A stretch of 64,000 nucleotides of DNA, from contig JAGLGM010000001.1 of assembly GCA_023144035.1 (NCBI GenBank), positions 135,422 to 199,421 on the forward strand. Reading direction: 5' to 3'. The notes under the pieces are model-generated. The model saw nothing but the letters and a program-made list of their open reading frames with translations. It was not told the origin of the DNA and searched no databases. The stretch's first letter is position 1, and every line of letters starts with the position of its first letter. Positions 5,221-60,688 of the stretch are shown here, piece by piece. Source of the stretch: Candidatus Pacearchaeota archaeon (lineage in GTDB: Archaea; Nanobdellota; Nanobdellia; Pacearchaeales; GW2011-AR1). The translations under genes and the position numbers were made by a program.

Positions 5221-8200
5221 ATGAAAATTGAATTTACACCTATAGACTATGATTATTTTGATTTTCAAGGGAGGAATTATGCAAAAATAATAGGTAGAAA
5301 CAACAAAGGTAAACGTGTTTGCATAATTGATTCTTGCCCTGTATATCTTTGGGCAATTCTAAAAGATAAAGTAAAAGAAAATAAAACTAACAAATTAATT
5401 GAAAAAATACAAAAAATCAAACTTAATGTAAAAGGTAGACAAACAAAAGTTGAAAAAGTAGAAATTCATGATAAAAATTTCATGGGAAAACAAGTAAAAG
5501 CATTAAAAATATTTGCAACAAACTATAAAGATTTACATGATATTGCAGATAAATTAGATTTACCTGAAATAGAAAAAAGAAGAGGATATGATTTAGGATA
5601 TATTACACATTATATTATTGAAAAAAAACTTAATCCTTTAAATTGGTATGAAATTTCAGGAGAGTTATTAAATAATTCTCAAGATTTTGGAGGAATTGAT
5701 ATGGCTTTAGATGTTGATTTCTGTATAAAAACTAAACAAATAAAAGAGCTAAAGAATAAAACAACTTTCAAACCAAAAACTTTAGCATATGATATTGAAA
5801 CTGATAAATTAGAAATTGGAAAAGGAGAAATTTTAATGATTTCTTTAGTAGGAGATAATTTCAAAAAAGTTATAACTTGGAAAAAAAGCAAATCAAAACA
5901 AGATTATGTGGAATATGTAAATGATGAAGTAGAATTAATTGAAAAATTTATAGAATATATAAAAAAAGTATCTCCTGATTTTCTAGTAGGTTATTTTTCA
6001 GATGGATTTGATTTACCTTATTTAAAGGCCAGAGCAGAAAAACACAAAATAAGATTAAATCTTGGATTAGATAATAGTCAACCTAAATTTTCAAGAGGAA
6101 TAACTATGACAGCTAAAATAAAAGGCATCACCCATATTGATATTTTAAAATTTATTAGAACTACTTATGCACAATATATGCAATCTGAAACATTAACTTT
6201 AAATGAAGTTGCAAAAGAGTTTTTAGGAGATACAAAAAAAGATTTTAAAATAAAACATAGTTCAGAATTAGAAGAACATGATTGGAAAAAATATTATGAA
6301 TATAATTTGCATGATTCTGTTTTAACTTTAGACCTCTTCAGAAAGTTCTGGCCAGATATGTTAGAATTTACAAAAATTATACAAGAACCAATTTTTGATA
6401 TTTCTAGAAATGGTTTATCAAAACAAGTTGAATCTTATATTATTCATAATTTAAATAGATTTAATGAAATTCCTGAAAAACGTCCAACTTATGATGAAAT
6501 AGCAAAAAGAAGACATAGGCAAAAAGTAGAAGGTGCATTTGTTTTAGAACCTAAACCAGGATTATATGAAAATTTAGTAATGTTTGATTTTACGTCTATG
6601 CACACAAGCATAATAATTTCTATGAACATATCAAGAGAAACTTTATTAGAAAAACCAGAAAAAAATGCATATTCAATTAAAACAAGAGAAGGTACATATT
6701 ATTTTTCGAAAAAACAAGGTTTTTTTCCTACTTTATTAAAAGAAATTTTTGACAAAAGAAAAGAACATAAAAAAGCATATCAAAAAAATCCAGATGTAAT
6801 TACTTTAGCAAGAAGTAATGCTTTCAAAGTATTATCTGCATCTGCACATGGATATCTTGGTTTTTTTGGAGCAAGATATTATTCTATAGAATCTTCAGCT
6901 TCAATTTTAGCTTTTGTAAGAAAATTTAATCAAGAAGCAATTGAAAAAACAGAAAAAGCAGGACATAAAGTAATATATGGAGATAGTATTGGAGGAGATT
7001 CTAAAATCATTATAAAAAAAGGAGACAAAATATATGAAGAAGAAATAAAAAATTTATTTGAAAAAATAGATTCAAAAAATCCAGATAAAAAAGAATATAA
7101 TTTAAAGAAAAACACAAAAGTATTGACTTTAGATGAAAAAGGAAATTCTGTTTTTAAACCCATCAAATATGTTATGAGGCATAAAACCAACAAAAAGATG
7201 TATAGAATTCATTTTACAAACAATTGGAATATAGATACTACTGAAGATCATTCTTTAATCGGCTATCAATCTAGCCATTTTAATCAAACAGAAATATGTA
7301 AAAAAGACCCTCTAAAAAGATTAACAGAAATAAAACCAGAAGAGATTAAGAAAAAAGCAAACAACATAATAACTTTAAGTAAAATTCCAAATAAATTTCA
7401 AACTAAAAATTATCCAAAAGAAGTATATGAATTTATAGGATTTTTTATTGGTGATGGAAGTTTTTGTAGAAATAAACAACATAATAAAAACAATAAAGAT
7501 TATTACCTAGGGTTATCATTAGGTTTAGATTCTGAAGAAGTAATAAATAAACTAATAAAACCATTAATAAAATTAGGCTATATCAAAAACTATTGGGAAA
7601 GTAAAACAAGAAAAGGAGACATAAAAATTAATGGACTAAAATTAATAAAAATTATTTCCCAAAATTGTAGAAACAAAGAAAATAAGAAAATAATCCCTTC
7701 TTGGCTTTTTGATGAAAAAGAAGAAAATATAGCATCTTTTTTAAGAGGTCTATTCTCTGCAGATGGAACTGTTATGATAAGAAATAATGCTCCAATAATA
7801 AAATTTACTTCTATAAATCAAGGCCATATAAATAATGTGAGAAAATTACTATTTAGAGTTGGGATTTCACATTCCACATTTAAAGAAAATAATCCAAATA
7901 AATATAAAACAAAACAAAAAATATACTCTTCAAGAAGTTATTCCAAAAACATAATTCTAAAAGATAAAGAAAAATTCCATGAAGAGGTGGGATTTTTACT
8001 AAAAAGAAAAAATGACAAATCAAAAATAAAAACAAAGGGAATTCAAAAAAAATTAATTAAAAATTTTGAATTTGATTTGCAAGGAGTAAAGAAAATAGAA
8101 CAAATTAAAACTCCAAAATATGTTTATGACATAGAAGTAGAAGACAATCATAGATTTTTTGCTAATTATGTTTTAGTCCATAATACAGATAGTGTTGCTT

Positions 8201-8877
8201 TTACTTCAGAAAAAAAATCAAAAAAACAAATCTTAGGATTTTTAAAAAAATTAAATAAAGATTTACCTGGGATAATGGAACTTGAACTTGATGGTTTTTT
8301 CAAAAGAGGTTTGTGGGTAACTACAAGAGCAGGAACTGTTGGAGCTAAAAAGAAATATGCATTAATTGATGAAAAAAACAACATAAAAATAAGAGGATTT
8401 GAAACAGTTAGAAGAGATTGGTGTAAACTTGCAAGAAATGTTCAAAGCAAGGTAATAAATCAAATCTTAAAAGATGGAAATGAAAAAAAATCTTTAGAAT
8501 ATTTAAAAAACATTGTTAAAAAAGTAAAACAAAGGGAAATAAATAAAGAAGACATAATTATTAAAACACAATTAAAAAAACCATTATCAGAATATAAAGC
8601 TATTTCTCCTCATGTTATTGCTGCTAGAAAAATGCAAGAAAAAGCAATTCCTGTTGGAGAAGGAAATTTAATTAATTATTTTATTGCTGAAACAAGAGAT
8701 AAAAAGAAATTAGTAAGAGATAAAGTAAAACTTCCAACTGAAAAAGGAGAATATAATATTAAATATTATTTAGAAAGACAACTTATGCCTGCAGTTGAAA
8801 ATATATTTCAAGTATTTGATGTAAACATCAAAGAAATTATTGAAGGTAAAAGACAAATGACTTTAGGAGATTTTTAA
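5221..8877 (+). CDS. polB: family B DNA polymerase, interrupted in frame by a 400-aa intein
   Basis: Exo I LAYDIETD, motif A DFTSMHTSII, motif B KVLSASAHGYLGF, motif C split as YGD / intein / TDS. The spliced extein is 818 aa. Confidence 0.95.
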   Translation: MKIEFTPIDYDYFDFQGRNYAKIIGRNNKGKRVCIIDSCPVYLWAILKDKVKENKTNKLIEKIQKIKLNVKGRQTKVEKVEIHDKNFMGKQVKALKIFATNYKDLHDIADKLDLPEIEKRRGYDLGYITHYIIEKKLNPLNWYEISGELLNNSQDFGGIDMALDVDFCIKTKQIKELKNKTTFKPKTLAYDIETDKLEIGKGEILMISLVGDNFKKVITWKKSKSKQDYVEYVNDEVELIEKFIEYIKKVSPDFLVGYFSDGFDLPYLKARAEKHKIRLNLGLDNSQPKFSRGITMTAKIKGITHIDILKFIRTTYAQYMQSETLTLNEVAKEFLGDTKKDFKIKHSSELEEHDWKKYYEYNLHDSVLTLDLFRKFWPDMLEFTKIIQEPIFDISRNGLSKQVESYIIHNLNRFNEIPEKRPTYDEIAKRRHRQKVEGAFVLEPKPGLYENLVMFDFTSMHTSIIISMNISRETLLEKPEKNAYSIKTREGTYYFSKKQGFFPTLLKEIFDKRKEHKKAYQKNPDVITLARSNAFKVLSASAHGYLGFFGARYYSIESSASILAFVRKFNQEAIEKTEKAGHKVIYGDSIGGDSKIIIKKGDKIYEEEIKNLFEKIDSKNPDKKEYNLKKNTKVLTLDEKGNSVFKPIKYVMRHKTNKKMYRIHFTNNWNIDTTEDHSLIGYQSSHFNQTEICKKDPLKRLTEIKPEEIKKKANNIITLSKIPNKFQTKNYPKEVYEFIGFFIGDGSFCRNKQHNKNNKDYYLGLSLGLDSEEVINKLIKPLIKLGYIKNYWESKTRKGDIKINGLKLIKIISQNCRNKENKKIIPSWLFDEKEENIASFLRGLFSADGTVMIRNNAPIIKFTSINQGHINNVRKLLFRVGISHSTFKENNPNKYKTKQKIYSSRSYSKNIILKDKEKFHEEVGFLLKRKNDKSKIKTKGIQKKLIKNFEFDLQGVKKIEQIKTPKYVYDIEVEDNHRFFANYVLVHNTDSVAFTSEKKSKKQILGFLKKLNKDLPGIMELELDGFFKRGLWVTTRAGTVGAKKKYALIDEKNNIKIRGFETVRRDWCKLARNVQSKVINQILKDGNEKKSLEYLKNIVKKVKQREINKEDIIIKTQLKKPLSEYKAISPHVIAARKMQEKAIPVGEGNLINYFIAETRDKKKLVRDKVKLPTEKGEYNIKYYLERQLMPAVENIFQVFDVNIKEIIEGKRQMTLGDF
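6985..8184 (+). mobile_element. PolB intein with LAGLIDADG homing endonuclease, inserted in motif C
   Basis: Starts at Ser (SIGGDSKIII) directly after YGD; block B TEDHSLIG; LAGLIDADG motifs FIGFFIGDGSF and SFLRGLFSADGTV; ends YVLVHN and is followed by TDSVAF. Confidence 0.9.
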
Positions 8878-21993: not shown

Positions 21994-22111
21994 TGGCCCT
22001 GGAGGGATTTGAACCCCCGACACCTAGATATCTCCAAACAAAGTTTGTTTCAAAGTCAATGAAACCATCGCATTAAGAGTCTAGTGCTCTACCAAACTGA
22101 GCTACAGAGCC
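21994..22111 (-). tRNA. tRNA-Lys (CUU) with a 44-nt intron at the canonical 37/38 position
   Basis: Hand-folded: acceptor GGCTCTG/CAGGGCC, D arm GCTC..GAGC, anticodon stem CTAGA/TCTAG with loop CTCTTAA, T arm GGGGG-TTCAAAT-CCCTC. No encoded CCA. Confidence 0.85.
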
Positions 22112-35826: not shown

Positions 35827-36453
35827 ATGAGTTTATCCAAAAAACTAAAAAACTTTGGAATTGCTACTAGTATTGTTGCTTCTTCATTCTTACCTATGAA
35901 ATCTTTAGCTCAAGAATTTGCAAACACAACAAATAAAAACAACACAGAAACAATACAAGATGATTGGAACTTCTCTTCTTATATCTTTTTCTTACAACCT
36001 CATGATTCTGATTTTAAAGATTGGTTTGGTTCTTATTTTGCTATTCAAGGAGAAGCAAAAAGAAAAATGAAAGAAGATATTTATTTAAATGCAAATGCAA
36101 CAATTGGGTTTGGAAAAGATAATTTAGAAAATATTTCAATAAATTCCACATTAGTAAAAATTGCAACAATGTTTGAATATCAAATTGGAACAAATGAAAA
36201 TTCAAAAGTTGCAGTAGGGGTTGGACCAGAAATTTCTAAACTTTCAATAAACTGGGCAAGTAGTGGAAGTGGAACAAATCAAAGTGGGAATTTAGATTAT
36301 TCTGGATTAGGATATATACTCCAAATGCAATACACACAAAATATAAGTGATCTTTTTGATTTAATAATTTCAGGAAGTTATTCTAAAGTAAAAGATGAAG
36401 ATACAAATGTAAACATTGGAACCACAGGAATAGCAGTAGGTTTAATATTCTAA
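35827..36453 (+). CDS. signal-peptide protein with an 8-strand amphipathic beta pattern (OmpA/OmpX/OmpW-like barrel?)
   Basis: Signal peptide ending KSLA/QE; eight alternating-hydrophobic strands; C-terminal GIAVGLIF ending in Phe. Confidence 0.45.
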   Translation: MSLSKKLKNFGIATSIVASSFLPMKSLAQEFANTTNKNNTETIQDDWNFSSYIFFLQPHDSDFKDWFGSYFAIQGEAKRKMKEDIYLNANATIGFGKDNLENISINSTLVKIATMFEYQIGTNENSKVAVGVGPEISKLSINWASSGSGTNQSGNLDYSGLGYILQMQYTQNISDLFDLIISGSYSKVKDEDTNVNIGTTGIAVGLIF

Positions 36454-38828
36454 ATCTTAAATCTCAATATAGCGCCAATCCCACCTAAATTATAAAATTG
36501 CTGTCCTTCTTCAGTATCTGTTGAAATAATTTCTATACTAGAACCAATATTCTTTGCTATAGGTGTTAATTCTTTTGCTATTTTTTTATCAAGATCTTTA
36601 GATAAAAATAAAATATCAACTGCACCATATTCTAATGCTTTTTTTGTAGCTGTTTCTTTTAAAGTTGCTAAATCTGGTTTTTCACCCAAAGTTTCAAAGA
36701 ATTTTTCCATTAATTTTTTCTCTTTAATTATTTCTTGACTAGCTAATATGTCTTGAGATTTTTTTACAAGTTCTTTTAAACCTGATTCATCAGAACCTCC
36801 AATATCTACTCTTCCAATAATTTTTTCTCTCAACTTTGTAACCAGATATTCATTATCTATAAATTCATCCTTAGTAGGAATAGGTCCTCCAATAATAATT
36901 CCTTTAAGTTTTGACATCTCAAAAAAGATTTTTTTTACTTCGTCTGCAATTCTTTTGTAAAAATCTTTTGTTAACCCTTCAGTAATTCTATGAAATCTTT
37001 GTGATGAATTATGAACAACCAATCCATTAGCTAAAAAATTGTGGTTTTTAGTCTCGATATCTACTGTTTTCATATTTCCAAGAGATTCAATTTTAGAAAT
37101 CTTAACAGCAATTAAATTAGAATTGTAAAAAGTTTCTAGTCTTCTTCTTAAATCTTCATCTTGAATTTTATCTAAGATTCTTCTCTTAAAAACTTCTTTA
37201 CTCATTTGTCTTTTATTACAAAAGAAATATCCACAATGGAAATCTCTTGTATTTAATCCAGAATTCCTTATTATTTTAGCTACTTCACTTCCATTGACAA
37301 CCAATTGACGAACTTTATTTCTAGAACTTCTATTATTAATTAATTCATCTACTTTCTGTTTTTTTTCTGTTGAACAAAAACCTATTTTTTCTTTAAAGAT
37401 TTTTAAAGATTCTAAATCATCAATTGCTAAAGTATATCTAATATTATCTGAATAAGGATTTTTCAAATTATCATATTCACTAACAGAAGATAAAATTCCC
37501 AATCTTAATAAACTAAATTGTATTTGTTTTGTTAGCAATTTATTATTTATTCCAAAAGCAACTCTTCCTCCAGAAACATACCCTTCAGCATCAAAAAACC
37601 CTCCTATAAATGAAGCTAAAGATTTATCAGAGGATTTTAAAACGAGTTGAGGAATTTTCCCATCTAAAGTTTTATCTTTATCAGAAATTATCTGTTTAAA
37701 TAATTGAGAAATAATTCTGCTATAAACTCTTAATTGCCAATAATTTTTAGAGCTTCTAAATCTTAAATCAGAATCAATTTTAAAAATTTCTTTAATTAAA
37801 TTCTGGTAATGTTGAGCTACCTCTTTTCTTTGCTCAAAAAAAGTTATCCTATCAATTTCATAACTTCCATCTCCTAAATAATAACCTATAATTCTTGTTA
37901 AATCAGGTGTTATTTTTTTAGGAATATTAATTTGTTTCATATTAAAACTTTGCTTAATTTTGGGAGTAAAATTTATTTCTTGATCTTTATTATTAATCTC
38001 TATTTTTTCAGGAATAATTAAATAATCTTCTGTCTTAATTTCACAAAGAGGTTTTTCCTCAATTCCTTTATCAGTTCTAACAAAAAAAGTATGATCTTTA
38101 GAAGCTTTAATTTCAAATCTAGGATAACAAGTTGTAATCTTAAATAATTCCTTATTATCCTCCCATTTTGCAATAAGAGGTGTTTCTTCTGTTTTTTCTC
38201 TGTTAAAATTTTCAGAAAGAACCATTAAAGGATTATGAGAATCTTTTATCTCTAAAATATCTCCATCAGGTTTCATTATTAAAGTATTTGGAGAAAGACA
38301 TTGACCTCCTGCTCTAACTTTACTTGGAATTCCAGAAGTCATCTTTTGTAAAACTTCAATTCTTTTTCCTTCTAACAAACCAATTGTAGCTTCTTTTCTA
38401 TCCATAACAAGTAACCCAAAAACCTCAGAAACTTCTAACATTTCTTTTAAAGGGTCTAAAACAAATTCCTTATCACATCTATACAAACGAACTTTGATAG
38501 GCATATGAGGTTCAATATCCCATAGTTGTAAATCTTGTTGTCCTTCTGATTTTGAAACATTTCCACAAAACAATGCTAATCCATTTTCAGGAGTCTTCTT
38601 CAAACTTTTCAAATGTCTAACAATCTTATCTAATGCTTCTGTAACATTTTTTCTTGTTCCAGTAGATTTAATATTTTTAGCAGTAGATTTTTCTGCTTCT
38701 AATTGTCTTTGAACAGCATTTACATCATAGCCTGAAGAAATATATACAGTAATAAGTTCAGTCTGCCTACCTCTATATTTTTCAAGTTCTTCAACTACTG
38801 ATTCAAGTTCATCTTTAGTTAATTTCAT
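36450..38828 (-). CDS. prf1: peptide chain release factor aRF1, interrupted in frame by a 431-aa intein
   Basis: NIKS motif (AKNIKST); GGQ at aa 174-176; canonical GGQ-SSQRF restored after removing the intein. The spliced extein is 361 aa. Confidence 0.9.
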   Translation of the reverse strand: MKLTKDELESVVEELEKYRGRQTELITVYISSGYDVNAVQRQLEAEKSTAKNIKSTGTRKNVTEALDKIVRHLKSLKKTPENGLALFCGNVSKSEGQQDLQLWDIEPHMPIKVRLYRCDKEFVLDPLKEMLEVSEVFGLLVMDRKEATIGLLEGKRIEVLQKMTSGIPSKVRAGGQCLSPNTLIMKPDGDILEIKDSHNPLMVLSENFNREKTEETPLIAKWEDNKELFKITTCYPRFEIKASKDHTFFVRTDKGIEEKPLCEIKTEDYLIIPEKIEINNKDQEINFTPKIKQSFNMKQINIPKKITPDLTRIIGYYLGDGSYEIDRITFFEQRKEVAQHYQNLIKEIFKIDSDLRFRSSKNYWQLRVYSRIISQLFKQIISDKDKTLDGKIPQLVLKSSDKSLASFIGGFFDAEGYVSGGRVAFGINNKLLTKQIQFSLLRLGILSSVSEYDNLKNPYSDNIRYTLAIDDLESLKIFKEKIGFCSTEKKQKVDELINNRSSRNKVRQLVVNGSEVAKIIRNSGLNTRDFHCGYFFCNKRQMSKEVFKRRILDKIQDEDLRRRLETFYNSNLIAVKISKIESLGNMKTVDIETKNHNFLANGLVVHNSSQRFHRITEGLTKDFYKRIADEVKKIFFEMSKLKGIIIGGPIPTKDEFIDNEYLVTKLREKIIGRVDIGGSDESGLKELVKKSQDILASQEIIKEKKLMEKFFETLGEKPDLATLKETATKKALEYGAVDILFLSKDLDKKIAKELTPIAKNIGSSIEIISTDTEEGQQFYNLGGIGAILRFKI
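37008..38300 (-). mobile_element. aRF1 intein with LAGLIDADG homing endonuclease, inserted between GGQ and S
   Basis: Cys1 (CLSPNTLI), block B SKDHTFFV, LAGLIDADG motifs IIGYYLGDGSY and SFIGGFFDAEGYV, terminal GLVVHN, +1 Ser. Confidence 0.9.
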
Positions 38829-38976
38829 TTCTCCCTCCTATGAAATTGGCTATTGAAAATCTCTGATTTGATGTTGTTATTGCCATAAAAGAAAAAGTAA
38901 AGACTAGTTTATAAAATTAGTCAAATAGATAATTTAACACATATAAATTATTAAATTAAAAATAAATCTAAATTAA

Positions 38977-39198
38977 ATGACAGATAAAAATATCACTTTA
39001 CTAGTAAGAGATAATTCAGAACTTTCAAAAGAAGTAGAGGATTTTTTAATAGAAAATAAAATTAAATATAATGTCTTATATTCAAACGAAAAAGAGATTT
39101 CTAATTTACCTTCAATACATACTCCTTTAGGAAGAGCCCCATTAAAAGGAAAAAAAGGATTTGCAATGTTTAAACATGATTATAAAGAACTTGTTTAA
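38977..39198 (+). CDS. hypothetical small protein, thioredoxin-fold-like without Cys
   Basis: Glutaredoxin-like length and strand/helix pattern, but no CxxC. Confidence 0.3.
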   Translation: MTDKNITLLVRDNSELSKEVEDFLIENKIKYNVLYSNEKEISNLPSIHTPLGRAPLKGKKGFAMFKHDYKELV

Positions 39199-39461
39199 TT
39201 AAGCAACTAATTTCAAGTCATGAATATGTAATTTTTTAATACCTTCGGAAGTATAAATAGAATAATTATCAGAATCATCAAGAGAAATTAAATTTCCATC
39301 AATCTTTCCATAATGATAATCTGTAATAGATACATTCTCACCGATTAAACTCTCTAATTTTTCATATTTTCCATTATGAGTTGTTTTGTTTTCTTTTCAA
39401 AATTTGGTCTCACAATAGGTAAAACCCCTATTAAAGTTAAAATAGTTCTAAGCTCACTCAT
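39199..39461 (-). pseudogene. frameshifted small ORF
   Basis: MSELRTILTLIGVLPIVRPNFEKKTKQLIMENMKN* in one frame and ..NGKYEKLESLIGENVSITDYHYGKIDGNLISLDDSDNYSIYTSEGIKKLHIHDLKLVA* in another, joined at an A-rich run. Confidence 0.3.
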
Positions 39462-39505
39462 AAATAGAATAATAATCAAAGCTTTTTAAAAATTTATATT
39501 CAAAA

Positions 39506-60593: not shown

Positions 60594-60688
60594 GTCCGAG
60601 TAGCTCAGTGGTAGAGCGCATGGCTGTTATGTTATGAAGCAAACTCGCAGTTACCATGAAGTCGGAGGTTCAAATCCTCTCTCGGACG
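60594..60688 (+). tRNA. tRNA-Asn (GUU) with a ~23-nt intron at 37/38
   Basis: Hand-folded: acceptor GTCCGAG/CTCGGAC, anticodon stem CATGG/CCATG, loop CTGTTA-intron-A, T arm GGAGG-TTCAAAT-CCTCT, followed by a T5 run. Confidence 0.85.

Follow-up and report, generated by a model that had tools for sequence, protein, structure and literature searches.

Here we describe a 431-amino-acid (aa) insertion in the gene for the class-I release factor of a low-GC (guanine plus cytosine) DPANN archaeon. The gene lies on a 64,000-nucleotide stretch of Candidatus Pacearchaeota archaeon (assembly GCA_023144035.1, contig JAGLGM010000001.1, positions 135,422 to 199,421; the whole of this stretch is called the window below) and encodes a precursor of 792 aa, of which residues 177 to 607 would be removed by protein splicing. 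With a probability of roughly 0.85, the insertion represents a true class-1 intein that contains a LAGLIDADG homing endonuclease, lies directly behind the GGQ motif of the single-copy-looking archaeal release factor aRF1 (gene prf1) and takes part in an ongoing homing cycle.

By its motifs and domain profiles the host protein is identified as aRF1, the archaeal class-I release factor. The three Pfam domains eRF1_1, eRF1_2 and eRF1_3 all score above their cut-offs in the 792-aa precursor, and the motifs NIKS, YxCxxxF and GGQ are present. The precursor reaches 389.7 bits with the aRF1 equivalog model TIGR03676, for which the NCBIfam cut-off is 234.7 bits; the Pelota model gives only 93.6 bits, with a cut-off of 177.65 (NCBIfam). 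When aa 177-607 were removed in silico, we obtained a protein of 361 aa with a contiguous GGQ-SSQRF, in which eRF1_2 is one unbroken Pfam match (profile positions 2-132/133, 127 bits) and the TIGR03676 score rises to 417.1 bits. At 361 aa the spliced product is short compared with a typical aRF1 (about 403-420 aa); lengths of 356-368 aa are also common among the nearest DPANN representatives.

Both junctions are exact. The GGQ is directly followed by Cys177, which opens the intein as CLSPNTLI, and the terminal GLVVHN, ending at residue 607, is directly followed by SSQRFHRITEG. Pfam Intein_splicing matches with 60.5 bits (cut-off 35.8), Pfam LAGLIDADG_3 with 64 bits (cut-off 22.5) and TIGR01443 (intein_Cterm) with 21.3 bits (cut-off 15.6). 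TIGR01445 (intein_Nterm) covers residues 1-74 of the intein with 21.1 bits, just under its cut-off of 24.5 bits, and the region also matches the intein-bearing parts of several NCBIfam models named as "intein-containing". An alignment of 59 homologues, spanning 62-88% identity, shows no variation at C177, S243, H246, D320, E415, D590, H606, N607 and S608. Within the intein, conservation is highest in a helical domain (aa 501-570) with many invariant residues; by analogy with other PI-type enzymes it is probably an extra DNA-binding module that aids DNA recognition.

The first cysteine is present in 119 of 120 close homologues. The sole exception is the 7-member cluster P0093, found on 3 contigs, which reads GGQ/RLSEDT (a slash marks the junction here and below) and thus has Arg in place of Cys1 in an otherwise intact precursor of 793 aa. 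One base change would explain the substitution; the allele may be unable to splice, or the Arg may be a variant that arose in sequencing.

The complete precursor was modelled with AlphaFold2; the model has a mean predicted local distance difference test score (pLDDT) of 82.7. Its confidence is low only in the extein residues that flank the junctions (168-175 and 608-617) and in an intein loop (201-215), and most of the endonuclease domain lies above 90. Residues 308-500 show the repeated helix/strand pattern of the alpha-beta-beta-alpha-beta-beta-alpha pseudo-dimer fold. A Foldseek comparison against the PDB returned two groups of structures, namely endonuclease-containing inteins (7qss with a template modelling score, TM-score, of 0.75, 7qst with 0.72 and 1dq3 with 0.64, and also 2cw7 and 1vde) and release factors (aRF1 4af1 with 0.73, 3agk and the ribosome-bound eRF1 5lzu); all TM-scores are normalised to the target. 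The endonucleases PI-PfuI, PI-TkoII and PI-SceI are among the matches. By sequence, the PDB entries matching the intein are PI-PfuI (1dq3, the best, E = 5e-11) and the VMA inteins 7qss and 7qsu.

A preliminary description of this DNA, made from its letters and open reading frames (ORFs), had named aRF1 as the host and had placed an intein of 431 aa at 37008..38300, flush between GGQ and Ser; these coordinates and this length agree with ours to the base, the flush position is confirmed by the junction residues and the restored eRF1_2 match, and the host assignment is supported by the motifs, the Pfam domains and the 417.1 bits for TIGR03676. Aligning the 361-aa product to release factor profiles, which it had proposed as a check, gave the single eRF1_2 match and the increased TIGR03676 score reported above. 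The class-1 splicing elements it had listed (Cys1, the block B SKDH, the terminal HN and the +1 Ser) are all present, as are the acidic residues D320 and E415 of both LAGLIDADG motifs, and all of these are invariant in the 59 homologues. Similarity to Hint domains, on which it had made its claim depend, is found in the 60.5 bits for Intein_splicing and in the superposition of the model on 7qss, 7qsu, 7qst and 1dq3.

We then consider how the insertion is distributed. Among 120 listed clusters of close homologues (62-100% identity), all carry it at the identical junction; of 115 inteins measured, 102 have 431 aa and 11 have 430 aa. These sequences, which come from metagenome-assembled genomes (MAGs), are labelled as Candidatus Pacearchaeota, Woesearchaeota or Nanoarchaeota archaeon. 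For a wider survey, the spliced 361-aa aRF1 was compared using HMMER with 1.84 billion representatives of 50%-identity clusters and the best 150 matches were examined; lineage labels cover the close clade and the GGW clade described below. An insertion exactly after GGx, x being the third residue of the motif, is found in 55 of these 150 representatives. Of these inserts, 38 have the full length of 412-577 aa, 3 have an intermediate one of 271-319 aa, and the other 14 are mini-inteins of 130-152 aa. In every one of the 55, the N- and C-terminal splicing lobes show homology to the window intein, and in the long ones the endonuclease does so too. One of them, P0138, is a plain endonuclease-deleted derivative of the window-intein lineage.

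Alleles without the intein, which the preliminary description had suggested looking for in related metagenomes, were found in three loci, L008, L009 and L010. For example, L008 (Nanoarchaeota archaeon C24_maxbin.320) shares 77% extein identity and the context SKVRAGGQ/SSQRFHRITE with the window gene; its empty allele reads SKVRAGGQSSQRFHRITE, and the nucleotide sequence around the junction is AGAGCTGGAGGGCAG on the left and TCAAGTCAGAGGTTTCAT on the right. In L008 and L010 the empty allele occupies the syntenic locus between the gene of valyl-tRNA synthetase (ValRS) and scpB. Intein-free relatives are as close as occupied ones, and on a neighbour-joining tree of the exteins the full, mini and empty alleles are interleaved, as is classically seen in a homing cycle. 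A search of IMG/VR contigs for a viral vector yielded no close relative of the intein, and a phmmer search of the window ORFs with the aRF1 intein returned only the intein itself.

Compared with the window sequence, the 120 homologues are on average 72% identical in the intein, 75% in the N-extein and 67% in the C-extein. Among the genomes from GTDB, the rate of nonsynonymous substitution (dN) in the intein is 0.14-0.26; the synonymous rate (dS) is saturated in these comparisons (at least 1), and therefore the ratio dN/dS was calculated from the closer relatives P0003, P0004 and P0005. The whole intein gives 0.11-0.17. Within it, the endonuclease domain has 0.14-0.24, the Hint lobes have 0.09-0.15 and the helical domain (aa 501-570) has the lowest values, 0.04-0.10; the exteins have 0.04-0.10. 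Since dN/dS is low in all regions, purifying selection acts on the entire intein, the endonuclease included.

Intein and extein distances are only weakly correlated (r = 0.41; none of 999 Mantel permutations reached this value). Among close pairs the intein distance climbs about twice as fast as the extein distance, and it levels off near 0.4 whereas the extein distance continues to 0.8. The clearest single case is the pair P0004 (a contig from the Joint Genome Institute, JGI) and P0005 (an ENA contig). Their exteins differ in 6 of 361 residues, with 95-96% DNA identity and a dS of about 0.2, whereas their inteins share only 72% of the protein and 76% of the DNA sequence, with a dS of 1.08. 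The drop in identity coincides with both borders of the intein, and four synonymous differences are crowded into the final 15 nt of the N-extein, a cluster that could be a short co-conversion tract. The opposite case is the window compared with P0003, where the intein appears "younger" (dS 0.52) than the exteins (dS 0.91). By these comparisons the history of the intein comes out as decoupled from that of the host gene, and this points to a mobile element whose alleles are still being exchanged among lineages. There is both a presence/absence polymorphism at an orthologous locus and an incongruence between element and host. If intein alleles continue to be exchanged, the endonuclease would stay under selection. 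The earlier suggestion that the endonuclease may still be active is thus strengthened, both by its dN/dS of 0.14-0.24 and by the apparent movement of alleles between near-identical host genes.

The following mechanism is suggested by the residues present and by the established biochemistry of class-1 inteins. Translation would give the 792-aa precursor, in which the 431-aa domain takes the place of the Gln176-Ser608 bond in the GGQ loop. Such a precursor should be unable to act in peptidyl-tRNA hydrolysis, because the insertion sits at the tip of the loop that enters the peptidyl-transferase centre. The Hint domain would catalyse an N-S acyl shift at Gln176-Cys177, after which the N-extein would be transferred to the side chain of Ser608 by transesterification; Asn607 would then cyclise, assisted by His606, and an O-N shift would rebuild AGGQ-SSQRF in a mature aRF1 of 361 aa. 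The free intein, as a PI-type endonuclease, should cut empty aRF1 alleles at the conserved DNA coding for R-A-G-G-Q/S-S-Q-R-F-H, and the intein would be copied into the cut allele by homologous recombinational repair. The population data fit such an ongoing homing cycle, as full, mini and empty alleles coexist and inteins seem to have been swapped between host lineages. It is a reasonable inference that translation termination in this organism depends on splicing, as the preliminary description had proposed, provided that there is no second, uninterrupted aRF1 beyond the 64-kb window. If this is the sole aRF1, each cell would have to inherit mature aRF1 in order to terminate the synthesis of new precursor.

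Several points weigh against the reading of a splicing, homing intein. Block B has S-x-x-H instead of the usual T-x-x-H, though the Ser is a conservative variant and invariant in the family. Both splicing and DNA cleavage are activities predicted from conserved residues and selection, and the dependence of termination on splicing carries the proviso just given. P0004 and P0005 are metagenome contigs, so that a chimeric assembly is conceivable and may explain their difference, although the two stem from separate samples and fit the overall pattern of distances. Finally, the constant length of about 431 aa and the host-like conservation could mean a role beneficial to the host rather than pure selfish homing.

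A first rival explanation is that the intein splices but is fixed and vertically inherited, with an endonuclease that no longer homes and is kept for folding or splicing, or for want of a precise deletion that spares the essential GGQ loop. The nearly constant length (431 aa in 102 of 115) and the positive correlation between intein and extein distances (r = 0.41, Mantel 0/999) would agree with it, and the close clade of the window is almost completely occupied, which leaves few targets for an endonuclease. On the other hand, the catalytic acidic residues and the motifs around them are invariant and the endonuclease has a dN/dS of 0.14-0.24; mini-inteins that lack it occupy the same site, from which it follows that the domain is dispensable for splicing; and empty alleles exist at the orthologous locus. 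The histories of intein and exteins conflict sharply in P0004/P0005 and in the window compared with P0003, and the plateau of the intein distances implies that the common ancestor of the inteins is more recent than that of the host lineages. We therefore consider a fixed, no longer homing intein unlikely. It is considerably less probable still that the intein has been domesticated as a switch, where conditional splicing (in response to redox state, temperature, salt or a ligand) would gate active aRF1 and tune termination in archaea with reduced genomes. A precedent is provided by the archaeal and bacterial inteins of RadA, MoaA and SufB, for which splicing has been established as conditional (see the references in PMC5784728); moreover, the aRF1 intein matches its host in conservation (72% compared with 75% and 67% for the exteins), sits in the catalytic loop of an essential factor and is broadly retained (55 of 150 representatives). 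However, no conserved sensor feature was found in the 120 homologues, which show no conservation of the internal cysteines (C234 varies); the redox version of the idea was dropped for this variation. Lineages of comparable relatedness have empty or mini alleles with no obvious compensation, the presence/absence pattern and the swapping of alleles are what is predicted for a selfish element, and the location of inteins at active-site motifs is a rule which is explained by the conservation of the target.

One could also suppose that the 431 aa are never excised, being either a permanent domain of a divergent aRF1 paralogue or an artefact such as an assembly chimera or a pseudogene. Splicing is, after all, predicted here from the sequence, and NCBI names several of the homologues "hypothetical protein" or "LAGLIDADG family homing endonuclease". 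Yet more than 115 independent clusters, on contigs of up to 556 kb, have an unbroken frame on which purifying selection acts, and the residues that are required solely for splicing are all invariant. The insert would stand at the tip of a loop that has to enter the peptidyl-transferase centre, orthologous alleles without it read exactly GGQ/SSQRF, and the spliced product outscores the precursor on the aRF1 equivalog model. By this evidence a non-excised insertion or an artefact is effectively refuted. There is, finally, the more speculative idea that the GGQ-site intein has retained a role in DPANN archaea, either as a gate for the release factor or in that long occupancy of the site after GGx is linked to a relaxed Gln (GGW, GGF or GGM in intein-rich, Aenigmarchaeota-labelled lineages); we hold this to be improbable to a high degree. 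A mobile class-1 intein in an ongoing homing cycle therefore remains our preferred explanation. The features of the precursor gene are collected in Table 1.

Table 1. Features of the aRF1 precursor gene, in window coordinates, with the residue numbers of the precursor.
Feature	Position	Strand	Evidence or remarks
aRF1 precursor ORF, 792 aa + stop codon	36450..38828	-	Pfam eRF1_1/2/3, Intein_splicing and LAGLIDADG_3; TIGR03676
N-extein, aa 1-176: N domain and first part of M domain, GGQ at end	38301..38828	-	eRF1_1 matches aa 14-131
NIKS, aa 52-55	38664..38675	-	N-extein
YRCDKEF, aa 116-122	38463..38483	-	N-extein
GGQ codons, aa 174-176	38301..38309	-	End of N-extein
Intein, aa 177-607, 431 aa, Cys1 to His-Asn	37008..38300	-	Pfam, NCBIfam, PDB sequence matches, Foldseek
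Hint N-terminal splicing lobe, aa 177-275	38004..38300	-	Invariant C177, S243, H246; model beta strands 176-273
Block A Cys177, N-terminal nucleophile	38298..38300	-	Hint N-terminal lobe
Block B IKASKDHTFFV (S243-K-D-H246)	38079..38111	-	Hint N-terminal lobe
LAGLIDADG homing endonuclease domain, aa 306-500	37329..37913	-	Pfam LAGLIDADG_3, two stretches; PI-PfuI alignment
LAGLIDADG motif 1 TRIIGYYLGDGS (IIGYYLGDGS, D320)	37863..37898	-	Invariant G319, D320, G321
LAGLIDADG motif 2 LASFIGGFFDAEGY (FIGGFFDAEGY, E415)	37578..37619	-	Invariant D413, A414, E415, G416
Conserved helical domain, aa 501-570, between endonuclease and C-terminal splicing lobe	37119..37328	-	Model helices 513-569
Hint C-terminal splicing lobe, aa 571-607, blocks F/G, ending in TVDIETKNHNFLANGLVVHN	37008..37118	-	TIGR01443; invariant D590, H606, N607
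+1 Ser608, C-extein nucleophile	37005..37007	-	First C-extein residue
C-extein, aa 608-792: remaining M domain and C domain, opens SSQRFHRITEG	36453..37007	-	eRF1_2 matches aa 607-696, eRF1_3 aa 700-792

Among the 150 nearest aRF1 representatives, about 20 have GGW, GGF, GGM or GGS in place of the catalytic GGQ, which is supposed to be universal. They keep YxCxxxF, and NIKS is strict in most of them, with a few near-variants (NIKD, NIQD, NVKS). One clade comprises P0134, P0139, P0145, P0149, P0161, P0166, P0168, P0169, P0180, P0184, P0189, P0206 and P0216; further examples are P0142, P0164, P0195, P0198, P0208, P0227 and P0267, as well as the locus L017 (8001-9215). The nearest neighbours of P0134 have GGW in 114 of 119 cases and NIKS in all 119. 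Sequences of this GGW clade bear the NCBI name aRF-1 and mostly the label Candidatus Aenigmarchaeota, with some Nanoarchaeota and Micrarchaeota labels. Many of the non-GGQ proteins also contain the intein at the GGx site. The P0134 gene has a context of housekeeping genes that is not syntenic with the window, and a GGQ paralogue in those genomes is possible. We found no mention of a GGW-type aRF1 in the literature searched.

The survey also turned up a second intein site in aRF1, inside the motif YxCxxxF for recognition of the stop codon. There the precursor reads YLYR/C(intein) and then VHN/CDDHF, so that the invariant Cys of the motif serves as the +1 nucleophile. The carriers are P0239 (929 aa) and P0266 (1452 aa), the latter having inteins at both the YxCxxxF and the GGQ site.

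The window as a whole has a GC content of about 25% and contains genes of archaeal replication and translation, among them those for PolB, MCM, an ATP-dependent DNA ligase, Cdc48, a type IA topoisomerase and a class-I tRNA synthetase. The latter lies beside aRF1 and is probably ValRS. Related MAGs share the order ValRS, aRF1, (DUF2334), ScpB, glycosyltransferase. In the window an AT-rich gap of 677 bp (38829..39505, GC about 0.21-0.26) separates aRF1 from the probable ValRS gene, whereas in L001 the two genes directly abut. The gap has no Rfam match and its sole ORF is 73 aa long (38977..39198, + strand); on these grounds we rejected it as a part of the element. Two Rfam tRNA matches, one of 95 nt at 60594..60688 (+) and one of 118 nt at 21994..22111 (-), are over-long for a model of 71 positions and received no call from ARAGORN; they are probably intron-containing archaeal tRNA genes.

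To our knowledge, InBase does not list an aRF1 intein. The preliminary description had suggested that the insertion site may be new. This holds insofar as no description of a natural aRF1 or eRF1 intein was found in the full-text literature searched; on the other hand, such sequences are abundant in public databases, and some are already named by the JGI automatic annotation as [quoted passage not shown]. In particular, an intein in aRF1 or eRF1 appears neither in the survey of eukaryotic inteins (Green 2018, PMC5784728) nor in the study of Anaeramoeba inteins (PMC10710043), the paper on release factor evolution (Burroughs & Aravind 2019, PMC6514570) or the Bodo saltans virus paper, and it is absent from the main text of Novikova 2016 (PMC4760082). 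Mechanism and family are ordinary, those of a PI-type LAGLIDADG intein; host and site are new. As is the rule for inteins, the aRF1 intein occupies an invariant active-site motif in a protein that is essential for information processing. It stands out by its prevalence in a core translation factor and by population-genetic signs of mobility that are unusually clean.

With this intein, the GGQ loop of class-I release factors joins the host sites of inteins. According to the main text of Novikova 2016 (PMC4760082), core translation proteins contain few inteins, and against this background a family found in about one in three of the nearest aRF1 clusters makes a useful exception. The natural series of full, truncated, mini and empty forms, together with what looks like an exchange of alleles and a short tract of co-conversion, offers a way to study the homing cycle in uncultivated DPANN archaea. 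There is also a practical side. The misnaming of essential aRF1 genes at NCBI can make DPANN MAGs seem to lack aRF1 and can distort marker-gene alignments. Possible tools are the mini-inteins of 130-152 aa with Gln at -1 and Ser at +1, and also a LAGLIDADG endonuclease whose specificity is new and whose target is highly conserved.

How does the aRF1 intein compare with known systems? Within the same genome there is a second case. The window ORF at 5221..8877 (+ strand) encodes a family-B DNA polymerase (PolB) of 1218 aa with its own LAGLIDADG intein of 400 aa (aa 589-988, about 6985..8184). It interrupts YGD/TDS, the classical, long-described pol-c site. As in aRF1, the interrupted motif is catalytic and invariant, and the protein is essential for information processing. 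The two differ in their splicing residues (Ser1 and Thr+1 in PolB, Cys1 and Ser+1 in aRF1), and no phmmer match between them was found at E <= 1, which places them in different families. A closer parallel with respect to host function are the IF2 inteins (aIF2/IF2) of Pyrococcus and Methanocaldococcus, which are listed in Novikova et al. 2016 (PMC4760082). They likewise occupy an archaeal core translation factor (COG category J, where inteins are rare), and the NCBIfam model PRK14845 for intein-containing IF-2 matches the aRF1 intein region with E = 3.6e-16. The IF2 intein, however, lies in a P-loop GTPase, whereas the aRF1 intein lies in the non-NTPase catalytic loop of a class-I release factor.

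With respect to architecture, the nearest solved relatives are PI-PfuI, the ribonucleotide reductase intein of Pyrococcus furiosus (1dq3), and the VMA inteins of Thermococcales (TliVMA, 7qss; PhoVMA, 7qst). They too are class-1 inteins in which the Hint domain is split by a LAGLIDADG endonuclease with two motifs, and they too have an additional domain ahead of the C-terminal splicing lobe. Their sizes are similar (432-454 aa, compared with 431 aa), and the second LAGLIDADG motif of the aRF1 intein, FIGGFFDAEGYVS, aligns to FIAGLFDAEGHVS in PI-PfuI. On the other hand, the identity over the structural alignment is just 14-21%, and block B has Ser in the aRF1 intein and Thr in the others. The insertion sites are also different, GGQ/S of aRF1 in one case and ribonucleotide reductase or the A subunit of the V-ATPase in the other, as are the hosts: a mesophile-like, low-GC DPANN lineage here, and Thermococcales for PI-PfuI and the VMA inteins.

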